This document shows positions 1,634 to 62,081 of a DNA stretch of 64,000 bases, one piece after another; position 1 is the stretch's first letter; each line of letters opens with the position of its first letter. Source of the stretch: an uncultured Clostridia bacterium. Lineage in GTDB: Bacteria; Bacillota; Clostridia; Christensenellales; UBA1242. The stretch is from positions 141,564 to 205,563 of the forward strand of contig CAKVOD010000002.1 of assembly GCA_934778205.1 (NCBI GenBank). Reading direction: 5' to 3'. A model generated the notes under the pieces. It saw only the letters and a program-made list of their open reading frames with translations. It did not search any database and had not been told where the DNA came from. The position numbers and the translations under genes were made by a program.

Positions 1634-2419
1634 TTATATTTCACTCCTACGTTTGTTTGTTAGAATGCAGAGCAAGGAGAAGATAAACATCAAACCCGAA
1701 AATATAAGATAGTATATTCGCAATGGAACAAAATAACTAGAGAATAGTAATACTATACCGCAAAAGAAGTAAGATTTTGCGCGCTTTCTTTCAAGGACAT
1801 ATTTTCTGAGTTTGGCAAATGTCATTTTTTCTTTTGTCGCCACTTCAATTTGTATTTCAGGGAAGATATGTGTTTGTTCGATTAGTTTTAAGTATATATC
1901 CTTTAAATTCATCAGCGTGTATTTAATTTTTTTATAATTTTTGGACGTTGCAAGACAATCATCACTGAAATTTGTGCAAAGTATTATGACTTCATCAATT
2001 TTGCGATTTTTATTTTCTTTATATATAGATAACAAATCTTCCAAATCAAATACATCTTTTTCAAAGTAGGGTAGAAATAAAACTTTTTGGTTGTCAGTAG
2101 TTTTTAGTAATTCACCCTTTGAATTTGGATTAATAGATAATAACTTTGCAAAATATTTGCGCAACTCAAGTTGGCTTGCGTTGTTGAGTTGTGTTTTTAT
2201 TGTTTCAATTTTTTTTATTTGTTCATTTTTAAGAAAAAGTTTTGCATCTTTTTTAAGTTTGAAGTAGAAAAGGAGAATACCTACAATTATAGTTGTAGAA
2301 CTCGCTAAAAGTAAGCAAATAGAAAAAGACAACAATGTTGCACGGTAAAAAACAAGTGAAATGAAAAAGATTAGTATAAGTTTAAAGATTTCATCAATGT
2401 AAAATGCAAGTTTGAACAT
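1634..2419 (-). CDS. hypothetical membrane protein (2 N-terminal and 2 C-terminal TM helices flanking a soluble domain)
   Basis: Long ORF with clear hydrophobic segments at both ends. I recognise no family motif. Confidence 0.5.
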   Translation of the reverse strand: MFKLAFYIDEIFKLILIFFISLVFYRATLLSFSICLLLASSTTIIVGILLFYFKLKKDAKLFLKNEQIKKIETIKTQLNNASQLELRKYFAKLLSINPNSKGELLKTTDNQKVLFLPYFEKDVFDLEDLLSIYKENKNRKIDEVIILCTNFSDDCLATSKNYKKIKYTLMNLKDIYLKLIEQTHIFPEIQIEVATKEKMTFAKLRKYVLERKRAKSYFFCGIVLLFSSYFVPLRIYYLIFSGLMFIFSLLCILTNKRRSEI

Positions 2420-2471
2420 AGTTTTTACCTCAAGAATATTATTGACAAAATAAATCAGTATTATAATTTAA

Positions 2472-28664: not shown

Positions 28665-29297
28665 ATGGCAAAAAACAATTATAAGTTAAAAGAAATACTG
28701 GAGTTTATAGCTGATTATTCAAAAAATAACGCATATCCACCAAGCATCCGCGAAATTCAAGACCAATTTGGATTCAGGTCAACTTCGACTGTTTCTTACT
28801 ATTTGAAAAAGTTGGAAGCAAATGGCGATTTGGTCAACAAAGGTCGCAAGAATAGAGCGTTGTCAATTTCCGATAGATATTTAGATGCAAACCCTATGTA
28901 CAAGCCAAAATTTTTGAATACTGATTTCTCAGTTGTTCCCCTAGTTGGAAATGTTACTGCTGGTCAACCAATTTTAGCTGAAGAAAACTACGAGGATTCG
29001 TTTTATATCCCAACAAATATGTTTCACGGCGACAACCTATTTATGCTTACGGTTATTGGCGAAAGTATGATTGATGCAGGCATATATGATGGCGACAAAA
29101 TCATAGTAAGACAGCAAAATACTGCTGAAAATGGCGAAATTGTCGTTGCATTGATTGAAAATTCTGCAACAGTGAAAACATATTATAAAGAAGATGGTAG
29201 AATACGTTTGCAACCTCAAAATCCTACTATGTCGGCAATGTATTTCGACAACATTGCAATTCTCGGCAAAGTCATAGGATTGATTCGTCAATTTTAA
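28665..29297 (+). CDS. lexA: LexA repressor (S24 peptidase)
   Basis: YPPSIREI wHTH, VTAGQP cleavage site, GESM Ser and VKT Lys. The ATG at 28665 has an AAAGGAG SD; the ORF-track start at 28608 overlaps the promoter. Confidence 0.9.
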   Translation: MAKNNYKLKEILEFIADYSKNNAYPPSIREIQDQFGFRSTSTVSYYLKKLEANGDLVNKGRKNRALSISDRYLDANPMYKPKFLNTDFSVVPLVGNVTAGQPILAEENYEDSFYIPTNMFHGDNLFMLTVIGESMIDAGIYDGDKIIVRQQNTAENGEIVVALIENSATVKTYYKEDGRIRLQPQNPTMSAMYFDNIAILGKVIGLIRQF

Positions 29298-36782: not shown

Positions 36783-39065
36783 ATGTTAACGCAGAAAGAT
36801 AAACAAGGTATTCGCACGGATAGTTGCAAAGCATATAGTTTAAAGAATAGAGCAAAGGTTCGTTTGCGAAAAATTCTCAAAATAATCTTATTTTTGATAA
36901 TGTTTACGATGTTATCAATGGCGTGTGTGTTTGGCTACTTTTATGTGAAAATTAATTCACAATATGGCAGTTTGCAATTTGACAAAGATAAATTAATAAC
37001 GGCAACTTCATATGTCCAAATTACTGATAAAAACGACGATAACATCGGGAAAGCGTCAATAAATGGGCGTGCAACTATCGAATTTAACCAACTGAAACAG
37101 CATACAGTCAACGCCTTTATCGCGATTGAGGACCAACAATTTTACAAACATAATGGTTTGAATTACAAAAGAATGATAAAATCGTTTATAACAAACTTAA
37201 AAAGTGGCTATGCCAAAGAAGGTGCTTCTACTATTTCACAACAGTTAATAAAAAATACGCACCTCAATAATGATAAAACGATTGAACGCAAGTTGAAAGA
37301 AATATTTTTGACAAAAAAATTAGAAAAAACATTTTCAAAAGACGAAATTCTAGAAATATATCTAAATGTTATATACTTTGGCAATAGTTGCTTTGGAATT
37401 GAAGAAGCAAGCAATTTTTATTTCGAAAAATCCGCAAATGATTTGAATATTGCCGAATCGGCAACACTTGCTGGAATAATTAAATCGCCCAAAATTTATA
37501 ACCCCATTTCAAATTATAACAATTGCGTTTCGCGTCGTAATCTCGTACTTGCACAAATGAAAAAATGTAACTTTATTAGTAATGATGAGTATACGAACGC
37601 AACCAACAAATCTCTTGAAGTAAAGCAAATTGTAAAGCAAAATTCAATTGAAAAACTTGTTGTTGATGACGCGTGCAAAGTATTGAATAAGTGTGAAAGA
37701 GATTTGGTTACTTCAAATTTAAAAATAAAGACTACAATAAATCCCGATTTGCAAAAATTTATTGATAGTATAGATTTGTCATTTCTAAAAATCAACGGCG
37801 AAATGCCTGATTATGCAATAATCGTAGAAAAAAATGCCGATAGCGCAATTCAAGCAATACGTTTTTCAAATATCGATATATTGAATATGAAACGCCAACC
37901 CGCTTCGTGTCTAAAGCCATTTTTAGTATATGCTCCAAATTTTGAGGACGGAAAAATTAATTTATTAACAAAAATTGATGATTCTCCGATTGATTTCGAT
38001 GGTTTTTCGCCTTCAAATGCTGACAAAAAGTACCGTGGAGAGATAAGCGTGACCGAAGCGCTAAGTAAGTCATCAAATATCTGCGCCACTAAATTATTAA
38101 ACTATTATGGAATAGATAAGGCAAAAAAATGCGCCCAAGGTTTCGGGTTTAAATTTGACAAAAAGGACAACCACCTTGCCCTCGCTCTAGGTAGTATGTA
38201 CTATGGTTGTGACTTGTTTACTTTAACAAATGCTTATGCCACACTTGCACGCAATGGCGCTTATATTCCTACCAAAATAATAGAAAATATATATTCTAAT
38301 ACCCTTCCGCTTTATAGATGCAAAAGTGAAAAAACGAAAGCAATAACGCCAGAAACTGCCTATCAACTTACACTAGCCCTACAAGAGTGTAGCAACGGTG
38401 GTACTGGCAAAAAACTACAAGATTTTTCCAAATACGTTGCCTGCAAAACAGGCACAAATGGAGTCAAAAATTCTACACAAAACACTGATGCATATAACAT
38501 AAGTTATTCAACCGATTACACAGTTTGTGTTTGGATAGGTAGCAATGAAAACAGGTTTTTGCCAGCAAATTTTAATGGTGGAAATCATCCTAGCATTGTT
38601 GCAAACACAATTTGGTCGCATTTGAATCCACAAAAAGAATTTGTAATACCTCAAAATATAGTCGAAAAAAATATAGATAAAATAACTTATGACAAAAGCG
38701 GACAAATTAAAATTGCCGATGAAAATGCGCCTGCTAGGTATATTTTGAAGGCAAAATTTAATAAAGACTTTTTGCCTACTGAAGCATCTACTTTATTCAC
38801 TACTCCACCAAACATTATTTTGAAGGCAAAGAAAGCAAATAATACAATCACATTGAGTTTTAATTGTGAAAAATACTACGAATATGCTCTTTTCAAGTGT
38901 ATTGAAAATGACGTTGTTTTACTTGAAAGCATAAAAAACAAAAATGGACAATATTATTTTGTTGACACATTCACAAATAATGATTCACTAATTACGTATT
39001 ATGTAGTTCTTTCTACCCCAAACAATAAAAAAACACTTTCAAACGAAATAAAAATTTTGACTTGA
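36783..39065 (+). CDS. class A penicillin-binding protein (glycosyltransferase + transpeptidase, PBP1A family) with a C-terminal extension
   Basis: GT51 motifs (EDQQFYKHNG, GASTISQQL), transpeptidase SCLKP, SSN and KTGT. The first ATG (36783) precedes a basic tail and a TM helix. The ORF-track start at 36702 is TTG. No clear SD for either start. Confidence 0.8.
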   Translation: MLTQKDKQGIRTDSCKAYSLKNRAKVRLRKILKIILFLIMFTMLSMACVFGYFYVKINSQYGSLQFDKDKLITATSYVQITDKNDDNIGKASINGRATIEFNQLKQHTVNAFIAIEDQQFYKHNGLNYKRMIKSFITNLKSGYAKEGASTISQQLIKNTHLNNDKTIERKLKEIFLTKKLEKTFSKDEILEIYLNVIYFGNSCFGIEEASNFYFEKSANDLNIAESATLAGIIKSPKIYNPISNYNNCVSRRNLVLAQMKKCNFISNDEYTNATNKSLEVKQIVKQNSIEKLVVDDACKVLNKCERDLVTSNLKIKTTINPDLQKFIDSIDLSFLKINGEMPDYAIIVEKNADSAIQAIRFSNIDILNMKRQPASCLKPFLVYAPNFEDGKINLLTKIDDSPIDFDGFSPSNADKKYRGEISVTEALSKSSNICATKLLNYYGIDKAKKCAQGFGFKFDKKDNHLALALGSMYYGCDLFTLTNAYATLARNGAYIPTKIIENIYSNTLPLYRCKSEKTKAITPETAYQLTLALQECSNGGTGKKLQDFSKYVACKTGTNGVKNSTQNTDAYNISYSTDYTVCVWIGSNENRFLPANFNGGNHPSIVANTIWSHLNPQKEFVIPQNIVEKNIDKITYDKSGQIKIADENAPARYILKAKFNKDFLPTEASTLFTTPPNIILKAKKANNTITLSFNCEKYYEYALFKCIENDVVLLESIKNKNGQYYFVDTFTNNDSLITYYVVLSTPNNKKTLSNEIKILT

Positions 39066-39132
39066 TTCTTTCTTATTGCAATATTAGGTTACAAATGGCG
39101 TCAAAAGCGTACGATATACGTTCAAACTCCAA

Positions 39133-39167
39133 ACAAAAAGGATTTTCCATTGGAAAATCCTTTTTGT
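39133..39167. terminator. bidirectional terminator between the PBP gene and the tRNA cluster
   Basis: aaaaaggattttcca-t-tggaaaatccttttt perfect dyad. Confidence 0.6.
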
Positions 39168-39175
39168 TGCAGACT

Positions 39176-39264
39176 TGGTGCCGAAGGCGGGACTTGAACC
39201 CGCACAGGTATTACTACCCGAAGGATTTTAAGTCCTTTGCGTCTGCCTATTCCGCCACTTCGGC
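39176..39264 (-). tRNA. tRNA-Leu (anticodon UAA), CCA encoded
   Basis: Reverse complement gives a gccgaag acceptor, long variable arm, anticodon loop cuUAAaa, T-loop GGTTCAAGTCC and 3' CCA. Confidence 0.85.
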
Positions 39265-39266
39265 TC

Positions 39267-39341
39267 TGGAGGCGCCACCCAGATTTGAACTGGGGAATGA
39301 AGGTTTTGCAGACCTGTGCCTTACCACTTGGCTATGGCGCC
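39267..39341 (-). tRNA. tRNA-Cys (anticodon GCA), CCA encoded
   Basis: Reverse complement ggcgccatagccaagtggtaaggc...cuGCAaa...GTTCAAATC...cca. Confidence 0.85.
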
Positions 39342-39365
39342 AGCATTGCATATGATATAAAAAAA

Positions 39366-39440
<75 letters not shown>

Positions 39441-39464
39441 GTTCCACAATAATAATATTGTGAT

Positions 39465-39540
39465 TGGTGGGAACTATAGGACTCGAACCTATGACCATCT
39501 GCTTGTAAGGCAGGTGCTCTACCAACTGAGCTAAGCTCCC
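39465..39540 (-). tRNA. tRNA-Val (anticodon UAC), CCA encoded
   Basis: Reverse complement gggagcttagctcagttggtagagc...cuUACaa...GGTTCGAGTCC...cca. Confidence 0.85.
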
Positions 39541-39555
39541 AATCAATGCTCCATT

Positions 39556-39584
39556 AGTATACTATAATATTTTGATAATGTCAA
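39556..39584 (-). promoter_or_regulatory. sigma-70-type promoter for the Val-Gly-Cys-Leu tRNA operon
   Basis: On the minus strand: TTGACA, 17-bp spacer, TATACT, ending about 15 nt before tRNA-Val. Confidence 0.5.
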
Positions 39585-39828
39585 CTGATTTTTCATATAT
39601 TTTTCAACTTTTTTTGAATTTCATTAATAATTTATTCAAAAAATATGTTTTTGACACAATTATAGAAATAAACTAAGCAAATTATAATGAAATTTTGAAA
39701 AAATGTCAAGTAAATTTATTCGATTTTCTTAAAATACAGTAAAATGTTGTAAAAAATTGGAATATTTAACAACTTTTCCTTTAAATAAATCATAAACTGA
39801 TACATTTCACTTATTGTCTATCTTTTAT

Positions 39829-39862
39829 AAAAAATAGCACAAAGGCTAATGCTTTGTGCTAT
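39829..39862 (-). terminator. Rho-independent terminator of the 42-aa peptide gene
   Basis: Perfect 11-bp stem atagcacaaag / ctttgtgctat with a 7-nt loop and a T6 run on the minus strand. Confidence 0.65.
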
Positions 39863-39882
39863 TAAACTGCAACTAACAAATG

Positions 39883-40011
39883 CTATTTGCTACAGTCTTT
39901 CGTGCAAGATGACTTTGAAGTACTGCGTCCTGCGCAACCTTTGCTTGAACATGCTTTCGATGTACAAGCTTTGTGCTTTGCGCATTTTTCAGTTTTACTT
40001 GTTCTAGCCAT
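39883..40011 (-). CDS. 42-aa six-cysteine, Lys/Ser/Thr-rich peptide (below the ORF-track size cut-off)
   Basis: GGAGG lies 5 nt upstream of the ATG at 40011. Translation: MARTSKTEKCAKHKACTSKACSSKGCAGRSTSKSSCTKDCSK*. Own terminator downstream; the yloV terminator upstream isolates the unit. Confidence 0.6.
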   Translation of the reverse strand: MARTSKTEKCAKHKACTSKACSSKGCAGRSTSKSSCTKDCSK

Positions 40012-40150
40012 TTCGACCTCCTGTGTGCAATGGGTAATTGCATTGTTGGCTGATGCCAACGAGTGAGAAAGTAGTTACAAACAAACTTATATGTTTATTA
40101 AGTTGTCAACTTTCTCAACATTAGTATGTCCACCTACCCTAAATTAATAC
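40012..40150 (-). promoter_or_regulatory. putative promoter (GTATT-17-CATACTA) plus ~110-nt structured 5' leader of the peptide gene
   Basis: Minus strand: GTATT (40150-40146), 17-nt spacer, CATACTA (40128-40122). Then a long imperfect hairpin closed by gagaaagt...actttctc, and hairpins gttggc-atca-gccaac and tgcaat-taccc-attgca just before the SD. Confidence 0.3.
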
Positions 40151-40243
40151 AAAAGATGATATGGTAATTTTAGCCAATTTTAAAAATTGCATTGATTGAA
40201 AAATAAATTTTTGTCGGTACAAATTGCGATAATTAAGACGCAT

Positions 40244-40293
40244 TAAAAAAATACCAACAAAAGACCAAATGTATGTTTGGTCTTTTGTTGGTA
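40244..40293 (-). terminator. Rho-independent terminator after yloV
   Basis: Perfect 18-bp stem taccaacaaaagaccaaa / tttggtcttttgttggta, followed by T7-8 on the minus strand. Confidence 0.7.
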
Positions 40294-40316
40294 CTATTAT
40301 CTACAATTAATCAATT

Positions 40317-41951
40317 TCATTCAACAGAAACAATATAATAATATACCGGTTGCCCACCATAGATTGCAGTTACTTCGCAATTTTCGTACTTTTCGGCAAT
40401 CTTTTGTTGAATGTCGTTCGCTTTATTTTCGTCGATGCCTGATCCATAGAATAGCGTGATATTAACAGATTCATCATTGACAAGATTTTCAACCAAATTG
40501 AGTAATGCCTCGTCCAAATCTTCACTTCTAGCACGAATGTGAGATTCATCTAAGCCAATAATGTCACCTTCTTTGATTTCAAAACCATCAACATTAGTAG
40601 TTCTAACAGCGTTTGTAACCGAGCCACTTCTCACCATTTTACAACTCTCATTCATAGCGCTGATATTTTCTTCTTTGTTTGAATCTGCATTGAATGCCAA
40701 TATAGCGGAAATACCTTGCGGAACAGTTGTTGTTGGAATAACGACAACTTGCTTTTGCGTAAGTGCTTTTGCTTGTTCAGCGGCAAGAATAATGTTTTTA
40801 TTATTTGGAAATACATAAACCAAGTTTGACGGAACGGCCTCAACGGCTTTTGCTATATCGTCAGCTGACGGATTCATTGTTTGACCGCCTTCAATGACAT
40901 AATCTACTCCTAAATCTTTGAATACAGCACTAATTCCGTCCCCTGCACAAACAGAAACCATACCATACGGCTTTTGATTCTTAATGGTAGCGTTTTTGCG
41001 CAATTCGCGATTTTGCTCACGCATATTTTCAATTTTTAGGTTGAAAAGTTCGCCCAATTCAAGCGCGTACCCAAGCGCTTTGTTTGGCTCATTGGTGTGA
41101 ACGTGAACTTTTACTAGTGACAAGTCACCCGTACAAATCAAAGAATCACCAATTGCAAGCAATTTTTCTCTCAACTTGTCAATGTCAGATTCGGTTGTTT
41201 TCTTGAACATATGAATTATCATAAATTCCGTGCAATAGCCAAACTCAATATCTGCGAGCGCTTCAAGATTAACGTGAAATTCTTTGATATTGTCAAGCGT
41301 TTTTGCTGTATCAACCATTTCAAATTCAAATGACTCGTCATTTATGATAATTCTATAAAAGCCTTGAAATACAACCATCAATCCACGGCCACCAGCATCA
41401 ATAACCCCTGCTTTAGCTAGTACTGGCAACAACTCAGGTGTTTTTTGCAAAATTTCTTCACCCTTGTCAATGACATATTTCATAAAATCTTCAAATTCTG
41501 GCATTTTCTTTGCTGCAATCGTTGCTTCCTCAGCCATAACCCTGATAACAGTGAGGATAGTGCCTTCTTTAGGCTTAGCAACTGCTTGATAAGCTATAGC
41601 AGCACCTTCTTTCAATGCCTTAGCAAATTGTTTAGTTGTGATTTCAGAACAAGTCTTAGTAACTCGTGCAATTCCTTTCAAAATTTGAGAAAGGATAACC
41701 CCGCTGTTTCCCCTTGCACCACGCAAAGCGCCCTTTTCAAGAGCATCGCTCAAATCTTCCAAATTGTTTGATGTGCAGTTGTTCAACTCGTTTGTTGCTG
41801 ATTTTAATGTGAGGAACATATTAGTTCCCGTATCTCCATCTGGAACTGGAAACACGTTGAGTGAATCCACATATTTTTTGTTTTGTTCCAAATTGCTACA
41901 ACCTGCAAAAATCATTTTTCTAAAGGTTGCACCATTTATTGTTTTTGTCAT
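40317..41951 (-). CDS. yloV: DAK2 domain-containing protein (YloV family)
   Basis: N-terminal DAK2 domain (PDGDTGTNM) with a C-terminal DegV-like part; conserved rpmB/asp23-yloV neighbourhood. The ATG at 41951 has a GGAGG SD. Confidence 0.8.
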   Translation of the reverse strand: MTKTINGATFRKMIFAGCSNLEQNKKYVDSLNVFPVPDGDTGTNMFLTLKSATNELNNCTSNNLEDLSDALEKGALRGARGNSGVILSQILKGIARVTKTCSEITTKQFAKALKEGAAIAYQAVAKPKEGTILTVIRVMAEEATIAAKKMPEFEDFMKYVIDKGEEILQKTPELLPVLAKAGVIDAGGRGLMVVFQGFYRIIINDESFEFEMVDTAKTLDNIKEFHVNLEALADIEFGYCTEFMIIHMFKKTTESDIDKLREKLLAIGDSLICTGDLSLVKVHVHTNEPNKALGYALELGELFNLKIENMREQNRELRKNATIKNQKPYGMVSVCAGDGISAVFKDLGVDYVIEGGQTMNPSADDIAKAVEAVPSNLVYVFPNNKNIILAAEQAKALTQKQVVVIPTTTVPQGISAILAFNADSNKEENISAMNESCKMVRSGSVTNAVRTTNVDGFEIKEGDIIGLDESHIRARSEDLDEALLNLVENLVNDESVNITLFYGSGIDENKANDIQQKIAEKYENCEVTAIYGGQPVYYYIVSVE

Positions 41952-59505: not shown

Positions 59506-60387
59506 ATGAGATTTAACAAGAAATGCTGTTGCCCTTATTGTTGCGAAGGCACAGTAAAACCAAAAACAATTATGCGTACAGTCTATACGGGTATAACGGG
59601 TCCAACTGGCGCAACTGGAGCTACGGGTCCAACTGGCGCGACAGGTGCCACGGGTGCAGTTGGCAACACAGGGCTTGCTGAAACAATAACACTCGGCAAT
59701 GTCTATATGGTCGAACCAAACTCACGCGCACGTGTCGTTGACAATCATCAAAACTTGAATCATACTTTCGATTTCTTCTTACCGCGCGGAGCAGATGGTT
59801 TTAACGGTCGTGACGGCAACGACGGACGCAATGGCGTCGACGGCAAAACTGGTGCAACAGGACCAACTGGTCCAACTGGCGCGACAGGACCTGAGAAAAT
59901 CCCTGTTGTTTATTTTATTTCAACGAGTAAACAATATCCTGAGTATGGACTGCAAATCGGCTCAAAAAGGCGACTGCCACTTGAGCGCAAGGAATTCGAC
60001 AACACAAACATTTGTGTACTAGATGCCGATGAAAACACCATTCAGTTTAATAAAACTGGTTCGTACAAAGTCGAGTTTGTCGTAAACGCTTACACACCAT
60101 ATTCGGGCTCGATTTTTAATCCTGGTACTGATTTTATATCCGTTGGCTTTAGACGCGTCGGAACGGAGATAGTTTTTGCAGGTCAAAGCAGTTTTAATTA
60201 CGACCAACAACCTATTCAACTCAGCGCACACGGAGTAATCATCGTAAATAGCATTGCCGAGCCATTTGAACTCGTGAACCTTTCGTCACAAAGCATATTT
60301 TTGAAATGTCCAAAACAAGAAAACACTGCGACAATCTCGCACTTTGTTTGCCCGAGTGTCACAGTGGTAATCACATATTTAGGATAA
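59506..60387 (+). CDS. collagen-like triple-helix repeat protein with a Cys-rich N-terminus and a globular C-terminal domain
   Basis: Two GXY tracts (10 triplets at 59590-59679, 12 triplets at 59788-59895; GPT/GAT-rich). N-terminal [12 protein letters not shown] ~160-aa beta-rich C-terminal domain. Confidence 0.8.
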
Positions 60388-61418: not shown

Positions 61419-61503
61419 TGGTGCGCATAGAGGGACTTGAACCCCCACGTCGTAAAACACTAGATCCTAAGTCTAGCGCGTCTGCCAATTCCGCCATATG
61501 CGC
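61419..61503 (-). tRNA. tRNA-Leu (anticodon UAG), CCA encoded
   Basis: Reverse complement gcgcatatggcggaattggcagacgc...cuUAGga..., long variable arm, GGTTCAAGTCC, cca. Confidence 0.85.
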
Positions 61504-61507
61504 ATAC

Positions 61508-61582
61508 TGGCTGGGGTGGCTGGATTCGAACCAACGCATGTGAGGGTCAGAGTCTCATGCCTTACCGCTTGGCGACACCCCA
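61508..61582 (-). tRNA. tRNA-Gln (anticodon CUG), CCA encoded
   Basis: Reverse complement tggggtgtcgccaagcggtaaggc...cuCUGac...GGTTCGAATCC...cca. Confidence 0.8.
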
Positions 61583-61620
61583 GTGCTCGGCAAATCTTTG
61601 CCAGCCGTTCATAAAAAAAA

Positions 61621-61696
61621 TGGTGACCCATCCGAGGCTCGAACTCGGGACAACTTGATTAAAAGTCAAGTGCTCTACCTACTGAGCTAATGAGTC
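61621..61696 (-). tRNA. tRNA-Lys (anticodon UUU), CCA encoded
   Basis: Reverse complement gactcattagctcagtaggtagagc...cuUUUaa...GTTCGAGCC...cca. Confidence 0.85.
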
Positions 61697-61720
61697 ATTC
61701 ACTCTTGCTTTCGCAAGAAT

Positions 61721-61795
61721 TGGCTGGGGTGGCTGGATTCGAACCAACGCATGCGAGAGTCAAAGTCTCGTGCCTTACCGCTTGGCGACACCCCA
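61721..61795 (-). tRNA. tRNA-Gln (anticodon UUG), CCA encoded
   Basis: Same acceptor, D and T arms as the 61508-61582 copy; anticodon loop cuUUGac. Confidence 0.85.
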
Positions 61796-61828
61796 ATATT
61801 AAAAAATAAAAAGAAATAATAAATTATG

Positions 61829-61906
61829 TGGGGTGGGTGATGAGTCTCGAACTCACGACCTCTAGAGTCACAGTCTAGCGCTCTAACCAACTGAGCTACA
61901 CCCACC
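61829..61906 (-). tRNA. tRNA-His (anticodon GUG) with encoded G-1 and CCA
   Basis: Reverse complement g-gtgggtgtagctcagttggttagagc...cuGUGac...GTTCGAGAC...cacccac-c-cca. The extra 5' G opposite C73 is the His identity element. Confidence 0.85.
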
Positions 61907-61910
61907 AAAA

Positions 61911-61986
61911 TGGTACGCCTGAAGGGATTCGAACCCCTGACCCACGCCTTAGAAGGGCGTTGCTCTTCCAGCTGAGCTACAGACGC
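61911..61986 (-). tRNA. tRNA-Arg (anticodon UCU), CCA encoded
   Basis: Reverse complement gcgtctgtagctcagctggaagagc...cuUCUaa...GGTTCGAATCC...cca. Confidence 0.85.
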
Positions 61987-62007
61987 TTGCTGAAACATAA
62001 TTTATAG

Positions 62008-62081
62008 TGGAGCGGGTGATGGGAATCGGACCCACGCGACCAGCTTGGAAGGCTGGGGCTCTACCATTGAGCTACACCCGC
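62008..62081 (-). tRNA. tRNA-Gly (anticodon UCC), CCA encoded
   Basis: Reverse complement gcgggtgtagctcaatggtagagc...cuUCCaa...GGTCCGATTCC...cca. Confidence 0.85.

Follow-up and report, generated by a model that had tools for sequence, protein, structure and literature searches.

The locus considered here raises the question of what is made from a short interval of DNA that lies among housekeeping genes and was passed over by gene callers on contigs of its own species. It is part of a 64,000-nt stretch, called the window below, from an uncultured Clostridia bacterium (Christensenellales, UBA1242; GenBank assembly GCA_934778205.1, contig CAKVOD010000002.1, positions 141,564 to 205,563). At 39883..40011, the minus strand carries an open reading frame (ORF) of 42 codons plus stop, the product of which is MARTSKTEKCAKHKACTSKACSSKGCAGRSTSKSSCTKDCSK. 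A preliminary description of this DNA regarded the ORF as an unannotated, stand-alone gene for a six-cysteine peptide. We found that the ORF is a genuine protein-coding gene under purifying selection. It belongs to a small-protein family that is newly recognised and very narrowly distributed, and the genes of which have a conserved structured leader. As for its role, we suggest, with a probability of about one half, that the gene encodes a lineage-specific small protein that is expressed in the forespore and resembles a minor small acid-soluble spore protein (SASP), and that it is translated from a stabilised mRNA.

A small gene under purifying selection

The position, composition and Cys spacing of the ORF are as previously described, as is the Shine-Dalgarno (SD) sequence GGAGG (40017..40021, minus strand) 5 nt 5' of the ATG. 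The peptide contains 6 Cys, 9 Lys, 9 Ser and 5 Thr among its 42 residues, and the Cys spacings of the window copy are x5, x4, x4, x9 and x3. At 4.3 kDa and with a net charge of about +9, it is a strongly basic, hydrophilic protein that appears to be unstructured, with no aromatic residue and with Met1 and Ala as the sole hydrophobic residues. The gene is indeed unannotated: it is uncalled on the same-species contigs, and a collection of ~15 billion predicted proteins does not contain the exact peptide. Homologues in that collection form a single cluster. An exhaustive phmmer search of 1.84 billion representatives returned one true homologue, P0002, together with one spurious repeat protein. 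P0002 has 42 aa and is 64% identical to the window peptide, and on its contigs it likewise follows yloV. Representative genomes of GTDB, when scanned, yielded the P0002 lineage and two more lineages, with peptides 95% and 93% identical to that of the window; the genomes that carry these homologues are all metagenome-assembled and labelled uncultured Clostridia or Lachnospiraceae. The four lineages, on which all statements of conservation in this text rest and of which L003/L008 is the divergent one, belong to one narrow clade, with neighbouring proteins that are 62-99% identical (92-99% for YloV).

Conservation in relatives, which the preliminary description had proposed as a check, is seen throughout this clade. 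The ATG, the length of 42 codons and the position of the stop are the same in all four lineages. In the frame of the ORF, the Nei-Gojobori ratio of nonsynonymous to synonymous substitution rates (dN/dS) is 0.05-0.35 in every pair, compared with about 0.8 to >2, or an undefined value with zero synonymous changes, in the two other frames. Third codon positions account for 6/8, 5/8, 5/6 and 16/30 of the differences, and among the codons that changed between close lineages (stop codon excluded), 5/7, 4/7 and 5/6 are synonymous. Five cysteines (Cys10, 16, 21, 36 and 40) are invariant, and TGC/TGT wobble occurs at four of their codons, Cys36 being the sole one that does not wobble. Cys26 is not conserved and is replaced by Ser in the L003/L008 lineage; the description as a six-cysteine peptide thus holds for the window copy and has to be reduced to five cysteines for the family. 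A TTG-extended form of 58 aa is not open in the L003 lineage. The pattern of selection, the wobble at Cys codons and the fixed length and stop together identify the ORF as a protein-coding gene. The ORF, its promoter, its leader and its terminator are conserved in the four lineages, whereas the DNA just upstream of 40181 is unalignable, so the conservation of the unit is more than chance.

Further searches added no relatives. A Pfam scan of the peptide, a PDB sequence search with the peptide profile at E<=10, a scan of IMG/VR for the family and a JGI metagenome scan with two 8-residue patterns all gave zero matches. A second JGI scan, which used a degenerate DNA pattern of the Cys spacing, returned 83 stretches with no relative among them; in six of them the pattern falls within an in-frame peptide of 34-52 residues, and these six peptides are unrelated and hyper-Cys. 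A word-index protein search gave zero candidates, and this index seems blind to short low-complexity queries. No paralogue was found by tblastn and a composition scan in 160 kb of the window and related loci. Within the collections searched, the family does not extend beyond a single genus-level group of gut Clostridia.

Promoter, leader and terminators

The gene forms a self-contained transcription unit of ~287 nt, from about 40115 to 39829 on the minus strand. It ends in an intrinsic terminator (39829..39863, minus strand) with a stem of 12 bp, for which 11 bp had been claimed, and a T-run. This terminator is kept in all lineages, in which it varies by loop changes and one compensatory pair. 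On the other side, the intrinsic terminator of yloV/fakA (40250..40295, minus strand) consists of a 20-pair hairpin, previously given as an 18-bp stem, and a T-run; it insulates the peptide gene from the upstream operon and makes it the independent unit that had been proposed. The hairpin after yloV is also present in the L003 and L006 lineages. A terminator scan of the region found 10 terminator-like sites against 2.2 expected.

Upstream of the unit lies a putative forespore-type (sigmaF/sigmaG-like) promoter (40122..40150, minus strand), composed of the -35 element GTATT (40150..40146), a 14-nt spacer and the extended -10 element GGACATACTA (40131..40122). The preliminary description had read this site as GTATT-17 nt-CATACTA and likened it to the forespore consensus, and the likeness was borne out by a two-block weight matrix built from 44 mapped sigmaF/sigmaG promoters of C. 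difficile (Table S6, PMC3789822). The site scores 13.7, compared with a training-set median of 11.7; on the two strands of the 64-kb window one site alone scores higher, and no intergenic site does. A score this high occurs in only 0.5% of 250-nt pieces drawn at random from the window. At the same position, all four lineages score 13.7-14.1. In their alignment, conservation starts abruptly at 40181 and continues through a 22-nt block, the invariant GTATT, a drifting spacer that is only about half conserved and an invariant G-GG-CATA-TAAT. The geometry GTATT-N14-GGACATACTA-A is that of the spoIIR, CD1354 and CD2809 promoters of C. difficile (Table S6, PMC3789822). In this species, sigmaF promoters have a G upstream of the -10 element and sigmaG promoters have an A downstream (PMC3789822). 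The window promoter carries both the sigmaF-like G and the sigmaG-like A, a combination that has been noted for C. difficile spoVT (PMC3789822). Readings of the promoter and the upstream block as sites for sigmaA, sigmaB, sigmaH, sigma54, sigmaE or sigmaK were compared by eye with the consensus sequences, and none fits the conserved positions. We infer from these features that the promoter is of the forespore type.

The upstream block, AAAATTGGCTAAAATTACCATA (40160..40181, minus strand), is invariant at 20 of 22 positions in the four lineages and lies at about -45 to -66 from the predicted start. As a sigma-factor site it was rejected, fitting none of the consensus sequences checked by eye; it could be an UP-like element or the site of a regulator. 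The tRNA Val-Gly-Cys-Leu cluster immediately downstream of the peptide gene (39176-39540 and 39556-39709, minus strand) has two tandem near-perfect sigmaA promoters, TTGACA-17-TATAAT and TTGACA-17-TATACT, which indicates that housekeeping promoters of the host look unlike that of the peptide gene. A functional tie of the gene to the tRNA-Cys operon was rejected, as the tRNAs have these sigmaA promoters of their own, and, since the L003/L008 lineage keeps the peptide gene but not this linkage, the proximity of tRNA-Cys to a Cys-rich ORF seems to be a coincidence. Elsewhere in the window, a site with a forespore-matrix score of 12.3 (2437-2466, minus strand) lies directly 5' of a 261-aa ORF (2419..1634), which is divergent from tsaE and matches neither Pfam nor NCBIfam.

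The promoters of the C. difficile set have their transcription start 6-8 nt beyond the extended -10 element, and this spacing would place the start of the peptide mRNA at 40116-40114, the first bases of leader hairpin P1. The leader had been described as one long and two short hairpins, a fold that was confirmed here with compensatory changes. P1 (40064..40117, minus strand) consists of a 9-bp outer stem and an inner stem, with 100% and 97% of cells paired, respectively; it would stand at the very 5' end of an mRNA that starts at 40116-40114, and an A-U to G-U change preserves one of its pairs. P2 (GTTGGC-ATCA-GCCAAC; 40045..40060, minus strand) has two compensatory pairs in the L003 lineage (GC to AU and CG to UA), as does P3 (TGCAAT-TACCC-ATTGCA; 40026..40042, minus strand; UA to CG and GC to AU). 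Besides these four compensatory pairs, three further pairs in the leader are kept via G-U. Over its 105 nt, 98.3% of cells are paired in the four sequences compared with 32-46% in slid controls, and the covariation is matched by 2 of 500 column shuffles. The SD is left unpaired by the leader hairpins, and GGAGGTCGAAATGGCTAG around it is unchanged in all four lineages. The whole 297-nt unit folds with z = -5.4 relative to shuffles.

The leader was also compared with known noncoding RNAs. An Rfam cmscan of 38900..40500 at E<=10 returned the four tRNAs and noise, with nothing credible over 40012..40125, and a covariance model of the leader found no second copy in 160 kb of the window and related sequence. 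Since the leader hairpins lack a U-run and do not hide the SD, an attenuator or a classical riboswitch is unlikely. The simplest function, by analogy, would be that of a 5'-terminal protective stem-loop. Stem-loops at the 5' end stabilise mRNAs in Firmicutes, for example in the aprE and ermC leaders. As in these stabilisers, a stable hairpin lies 0-2 nt from the predicted 5' end and is followed by an accessible strong SD; unlike them, the window leader has the additional conserved hairpins P2 and P3, which have no counterpart there, and its start is a predicted one.

Structure is also predicted beyond the leader. RNAalifold places a hairpin of 10 pairs, two of them compensatory, over the last codons, the stop and the 3' untranslated region (39864..39898, minus strand), and this hairpin survives a 7-nt deletion in the L003 lineage. 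In the RNAalifold structure of the whole transcript, the start-codon region (40017..40006) pairs with codons 33-37 (39914..39902), and the 19-nt stretch CTTCAAAGTCATCTTGCAC of this pairing is invariant even synonymously, with a dS of about 0.8 elsewhere. The covariation in the coding domain comprises one compensatory pair and is not significant, being reached by 86 of 500 shuffles. Variable columns are fewer in the paired part of the coding sequence (9/63 vs 23/63), a depletion for which p = 0.13 at third codon positions alone and the test of which is circular because the structure was chosen on the same sequences. We regard the predicted pairing of the start codon with codons 33-37 as a lead.

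A proposed small spore protein and its rivals

If the promoter is of the forespore type, RNA polymerase with a forespore sigma factor would transcribe the peptide gene in the developing spore. The hairpin at the 5' end and the two further hairpins would shield the mRNA from decay that depends on the 5' end, so that the short message persists, and the strong unpaired SD would allow high translation. The peptide would then build up in the spore, as a small protein that is specific to the lineage and has its analogues in the minor SASPs of Bacillus. The sigma factor, the transcription start and the stabilising role of the leader are all predicted components of this scheme. The five conserved thiols, set among Lys, Ser and Thr, might take part in metal-ion binding or in redox or disulfide chemistry; a function in metal, redox or nucleic-acid binding is speculative.

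The comparison with minor SASPs rests on several traits. These proteins have 34-50 aa, are sigmaG dependent and narrowly distributed, and are frequently missed by annotation (PMC3533761). Like SspJ, K, L, M, N, O and P, which are hydrophilic, of low complexity, often basic and 34-50 aa long, the window peptide is a small hydrophilic product of a monocistronic gene, here with terminators on both sides. A strong ribosome-binding site, a terminator of its own, a forespore (sigmaG) promoter, which in the window is a predicted one, fast evolution and a patchy distribution are further points of likeness. Unlike the minor SASPs, to none of which it has sequence similarity, the peptide has five conserved cysteines and its mRNA has a long structured leader. 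The host also differs, as it belongs to a gut Clostridia lineage and not to Bacillaceae; from gut Clostridia lineages only alpha/beta-type SASPs, SspH and Tlp have been reported, and SspI is found in Thermoanaerobacterales (PMC3533761).

A role in the spore presupposes a host that forms spores. We examined about 84 kb of the host genome, consisting of the window and two same-species loci, L009 (upstream of the window start) and L010 (~9 kb past its high-coordinate end); neither a sigma-factor gene nor an ssp gene was found there. Several hints of sporulation were seen. In L009 (800-2226), minD-minE are followed by an overlapping pair of genes that encode a 195-aa ORF without a family match and a 283-aa M50 protease. 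The protease matches B. subtilis SpoIVFB (PDB 8vjl) with E = 7e-19 and an archaeal site-2 protease equally well; the place after minD-minE is that of spoIVFB in Bacillus, and the pair resembles spoIVFA-spoIVFB. A deacetylase gene after pnp has ylxY/PdaB, which are sporulation models, as its best models, below their cut-offs. L010 (374-693) contains a divergent HU paralogue (ATG at 421, 90 aa, SD GGAGGAG) 50 nt after a MurJ/SpoVB-like gene, and the 50-nt gap holds GTATA-N14-GGCAAAACTT, which at 14.8 is the best forespore-matrix site of the locus. A second HU gene (L010:2935-3207) has an extended sigmaA-type -10 element. Judging from its upstream sequence, the divergent HU paralogue may be a forespore-specific nucleoid protein. 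A 293-aa collagen-triple-helix repeat protein (window 59506-60387, plus strand) was also listed among the hints. For extension of the contigs, a homologue search with a 122-aa fragment gave zero matches, and one with a 609-aa query gave an exact-match cluster without contig location. A 69%-identical relative lay in a non-syntenic context.

A number of points weigh against a minor SASP-like forespore protein. To our knowledge, known SASPs are not cysteine-rich, and those of Bacillus are essentially without Cys. Forespore expression has the promoter sequence as its basis, and the last base of its GTATT deviates from the usual G(T/A)ATA. The covariation of the leader comes from essentially one divergent lineage, so it is suggestive and not statistically strong. 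The hints of sporulation in the host amount to no proof, and among them the matches to SpoIVFB and ylxY either fall short of the family cut-offs or lack specificity. AlphaFold2, run on a two-sequence alignment, gave an uninformative model (pLDDT, its predicted confidence score, 55). On balance we favour a small spore protein over a metal-binding alternative, and metal binding is possible and compatible with a role in the spore.

The peptide could be a vegetative metallothionein-like or thiol-buffering protein that has nothing to do with sporulation and is induced by metal, redox or other stress, either by way of an alternative sigma factor or by an activator that binds the conserved upstream block, an explanation that we consider unlikely and that deserves attention before the others. 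Its composition of Cys, Lys, Ser, Thr, Ala and Gly, with almost no hydrophobic residue, and its five invariant cysteines would suit such a protein; the block at 40181..40160 might bind a regulator, the promoter clearly departs from the sigmaA type, and the host may not form spores. The metallothioneins SmtA/BmtA and MymT are likewise small, Cys-containing, free of aromatic residues and rich in Lys, Ser, Thr, Gly and Ala, and thiol metal binding by the peptide is plausible by this analogy. However, with a Cys content of 12-14% its Cys density is about half of theirs, its conserved spacings (x5, x4, x14 (or x4 and x9) and x3) include none of the CxC, CC or CxxC clusters, and it has no conserved His. 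No metallothionein model of Pfam or NCBIfam matches it, the truly Cys-rich peptides from the pattern scan are of quite another appearance, neither a metal transporter nor a regulator adjoins the gene, and the fit of the promoter to the forespore matrix is above that of 99.5% of random 250-nt segments. The thiols and the spore might also be combined. In a reading that we think rather improbable, the gene would encode a new forespore-specific thiol-rich protein, either a spore mini-metallothionein or a redox or cysteine reserve, from a stored or translationally gated mRNA. The mRNA would be a conserved, almost fully paired particle, with the 5' hairpin, the two leader hairpins and the start paired with codons 33-37, and it would be gated in spore formation or germination; if so, the structure of leader and coding sequence would be a new cis-acting RNA element that goes beyond a stabiliser. 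Slightly less probable again is that the 287-nt transcript acts mainly as RNA, as a dual-function or regulatory RNA or a masked stored mRNA, and that the peptide is secondary. The RNA SR1 of B. subtilis, which encodes SR1P, is a dual-function RNA. It resembles the window transcript in being short (about 200-290 nt), highly structured and monocistronic and in encoding a Cys-containing peptide of ~40 residues, and the strong folding of the transcript, the covarying leader hairpins, the 19 invariant nucleotides, the Cys36 codon that never wobbles and the depletion of variable columns all point the same way. On the other hand, neither the covariation nor the depletion in the coding domain is decisive for the reasons given above, the constraint at the protein level is strong, and the window transcript differs from SR1 in having no Rfam or sequence similarity to it, no known base-pairing target and a different type of promoter.

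The preliminary description had compared the peptide with SCIFF-type peptides, and a precursor of a radical-SAM-modified ribosomal peptide (RiPP), be it a ranthipeptide, SCIFF-like or CefA-like, with its maturase elsewhere in the genome, is very improbable in our view. The window peptide does share with SCIFF/ranthipeptide precursors a length of ~45 aa, six cysteines in the window copy, Lys, Thr, Ser and Ala between them and a Clostridia host, and Thr, Ser and Asp stand beside Cys as at ranthipeptide acceptor sites (PMC8326336). The sole match in an NCBIfam scan of the window peptide and four homologues was CefA (NF038108, a RiPP peptide with Cys at every fifth position; E = 0.0066, 16.3 bits), which reflects a partial five-residue period of Cys16, 21, 26 and 36. 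This match is below the cut-off of 30, weak in three of the four homologues and lost in the L003 lineage, in which Cys26 is Ser. CefA membership was rejected, considering that the score is below the cut-off, that it depends on the unconserved Cys26 and that no maturase lies within the 84 kb. The SCIFF model TIGR03973 gave no match at E<=10 in the same scan, and with no adjacent maturase, a different spacing and only five conserved Cys, SCIFF membership was rejected as well. Precursors normally adjoin their maturase, which is part of the definition of SCIFF, yet no SPASM-type maturase, protease or exporter for the peptide was found within the 84 kb, and no TIGR03974 maturase stands beside the gene, the neighbours of which are yloV/fakA, asp23, tRNA genes and a penicillin-binding protein (PBP) gene. 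The radical-SAM genes of the window are RimO-like, MiaB, RlmN and MtaB-like, tRNA or rRNA modifiers that had already been taken as housekeeping, and the 84 kb contains in addition a Radical_SAM_N2/DUF2344 pair, which is the widespread TIGR03960-like pair. Furthermore, the N-terminus before the first Cys is very short, with only 9 residues and no hydrophobic leader motif, unlike that of SCIFF/ranthipeptide precursors. Least probable of all, and hardly tenable, is that the ORF arose by chance within conserved non-coding DNA. The ORF was indeed passed over by gene callers in the window's species, and a 56-aa ORF on the same strand and a 52-aa antisense ORF are also stop-free in all lineages; however, the substitution pattern fits only frame 0, most changed codons among close lineages are synonymous, and the ATG, SD and stop are conserved.

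The small spore protein that we favour would have modest consequences, as the family is very narrow and nothing about it overturns current understanding. Proteins of <50 residues are systematically missed in metagenome-assembled genomes, and the peptide gene is a case that was skipped and is nevertheless under selection. Expression in the forespore, if borne out, would bring uncultured gut Clostridia into a repertoire of lineage-specific small spore proteins that has so far been compiled almost entirely from Bacillaceae. The repertoire would also gain a cysteine-rich type, and with it a hint of metal or redox chemistry in spores. Many gut anaerobes pass between hosts as spores, and the conserved promoter and leader may provide a compact marker for forespore-type transcription in this uncultured clade.

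Genomic setting of the peptide gene

The peptide gene is set among housekeeping genes. The order on the minus strand is rlmN, rsgA, rpe, (rpmB on the plus strand), asp23, yloV/fakA, the peptide gene and the tRNA Val-Gly-Cys-Leu cluster; beyond the cluster, PBP1A lies on the other strand and is followed by miaB, mutS, mutL and miaA. Synteny breaks off exactly behind the terminator of the peptide gene (L008:10130-16300 compared with the window from 39829 downwards). On the 3' side of the peptide gene in the L003/L008 lineage, suhB-like, rsmE, mtaB, HIT and metallophosphatase genes replace the tRNA cluster, and these genes are 17-23 kb away in the window's species.

Some other features of the window may be mentioned. 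The minus strand encodes an unusually long PadR-domain protein of 640 aa (23861-25783). On the plus strand (27515-29297), lexA comes directly after a tyrosine recombinase gene. A second tRNA cluster (61419-62081, minus strand) is composed of seven genes, for Gly, Arg, His, Gln, Lys, Gln and Leu.

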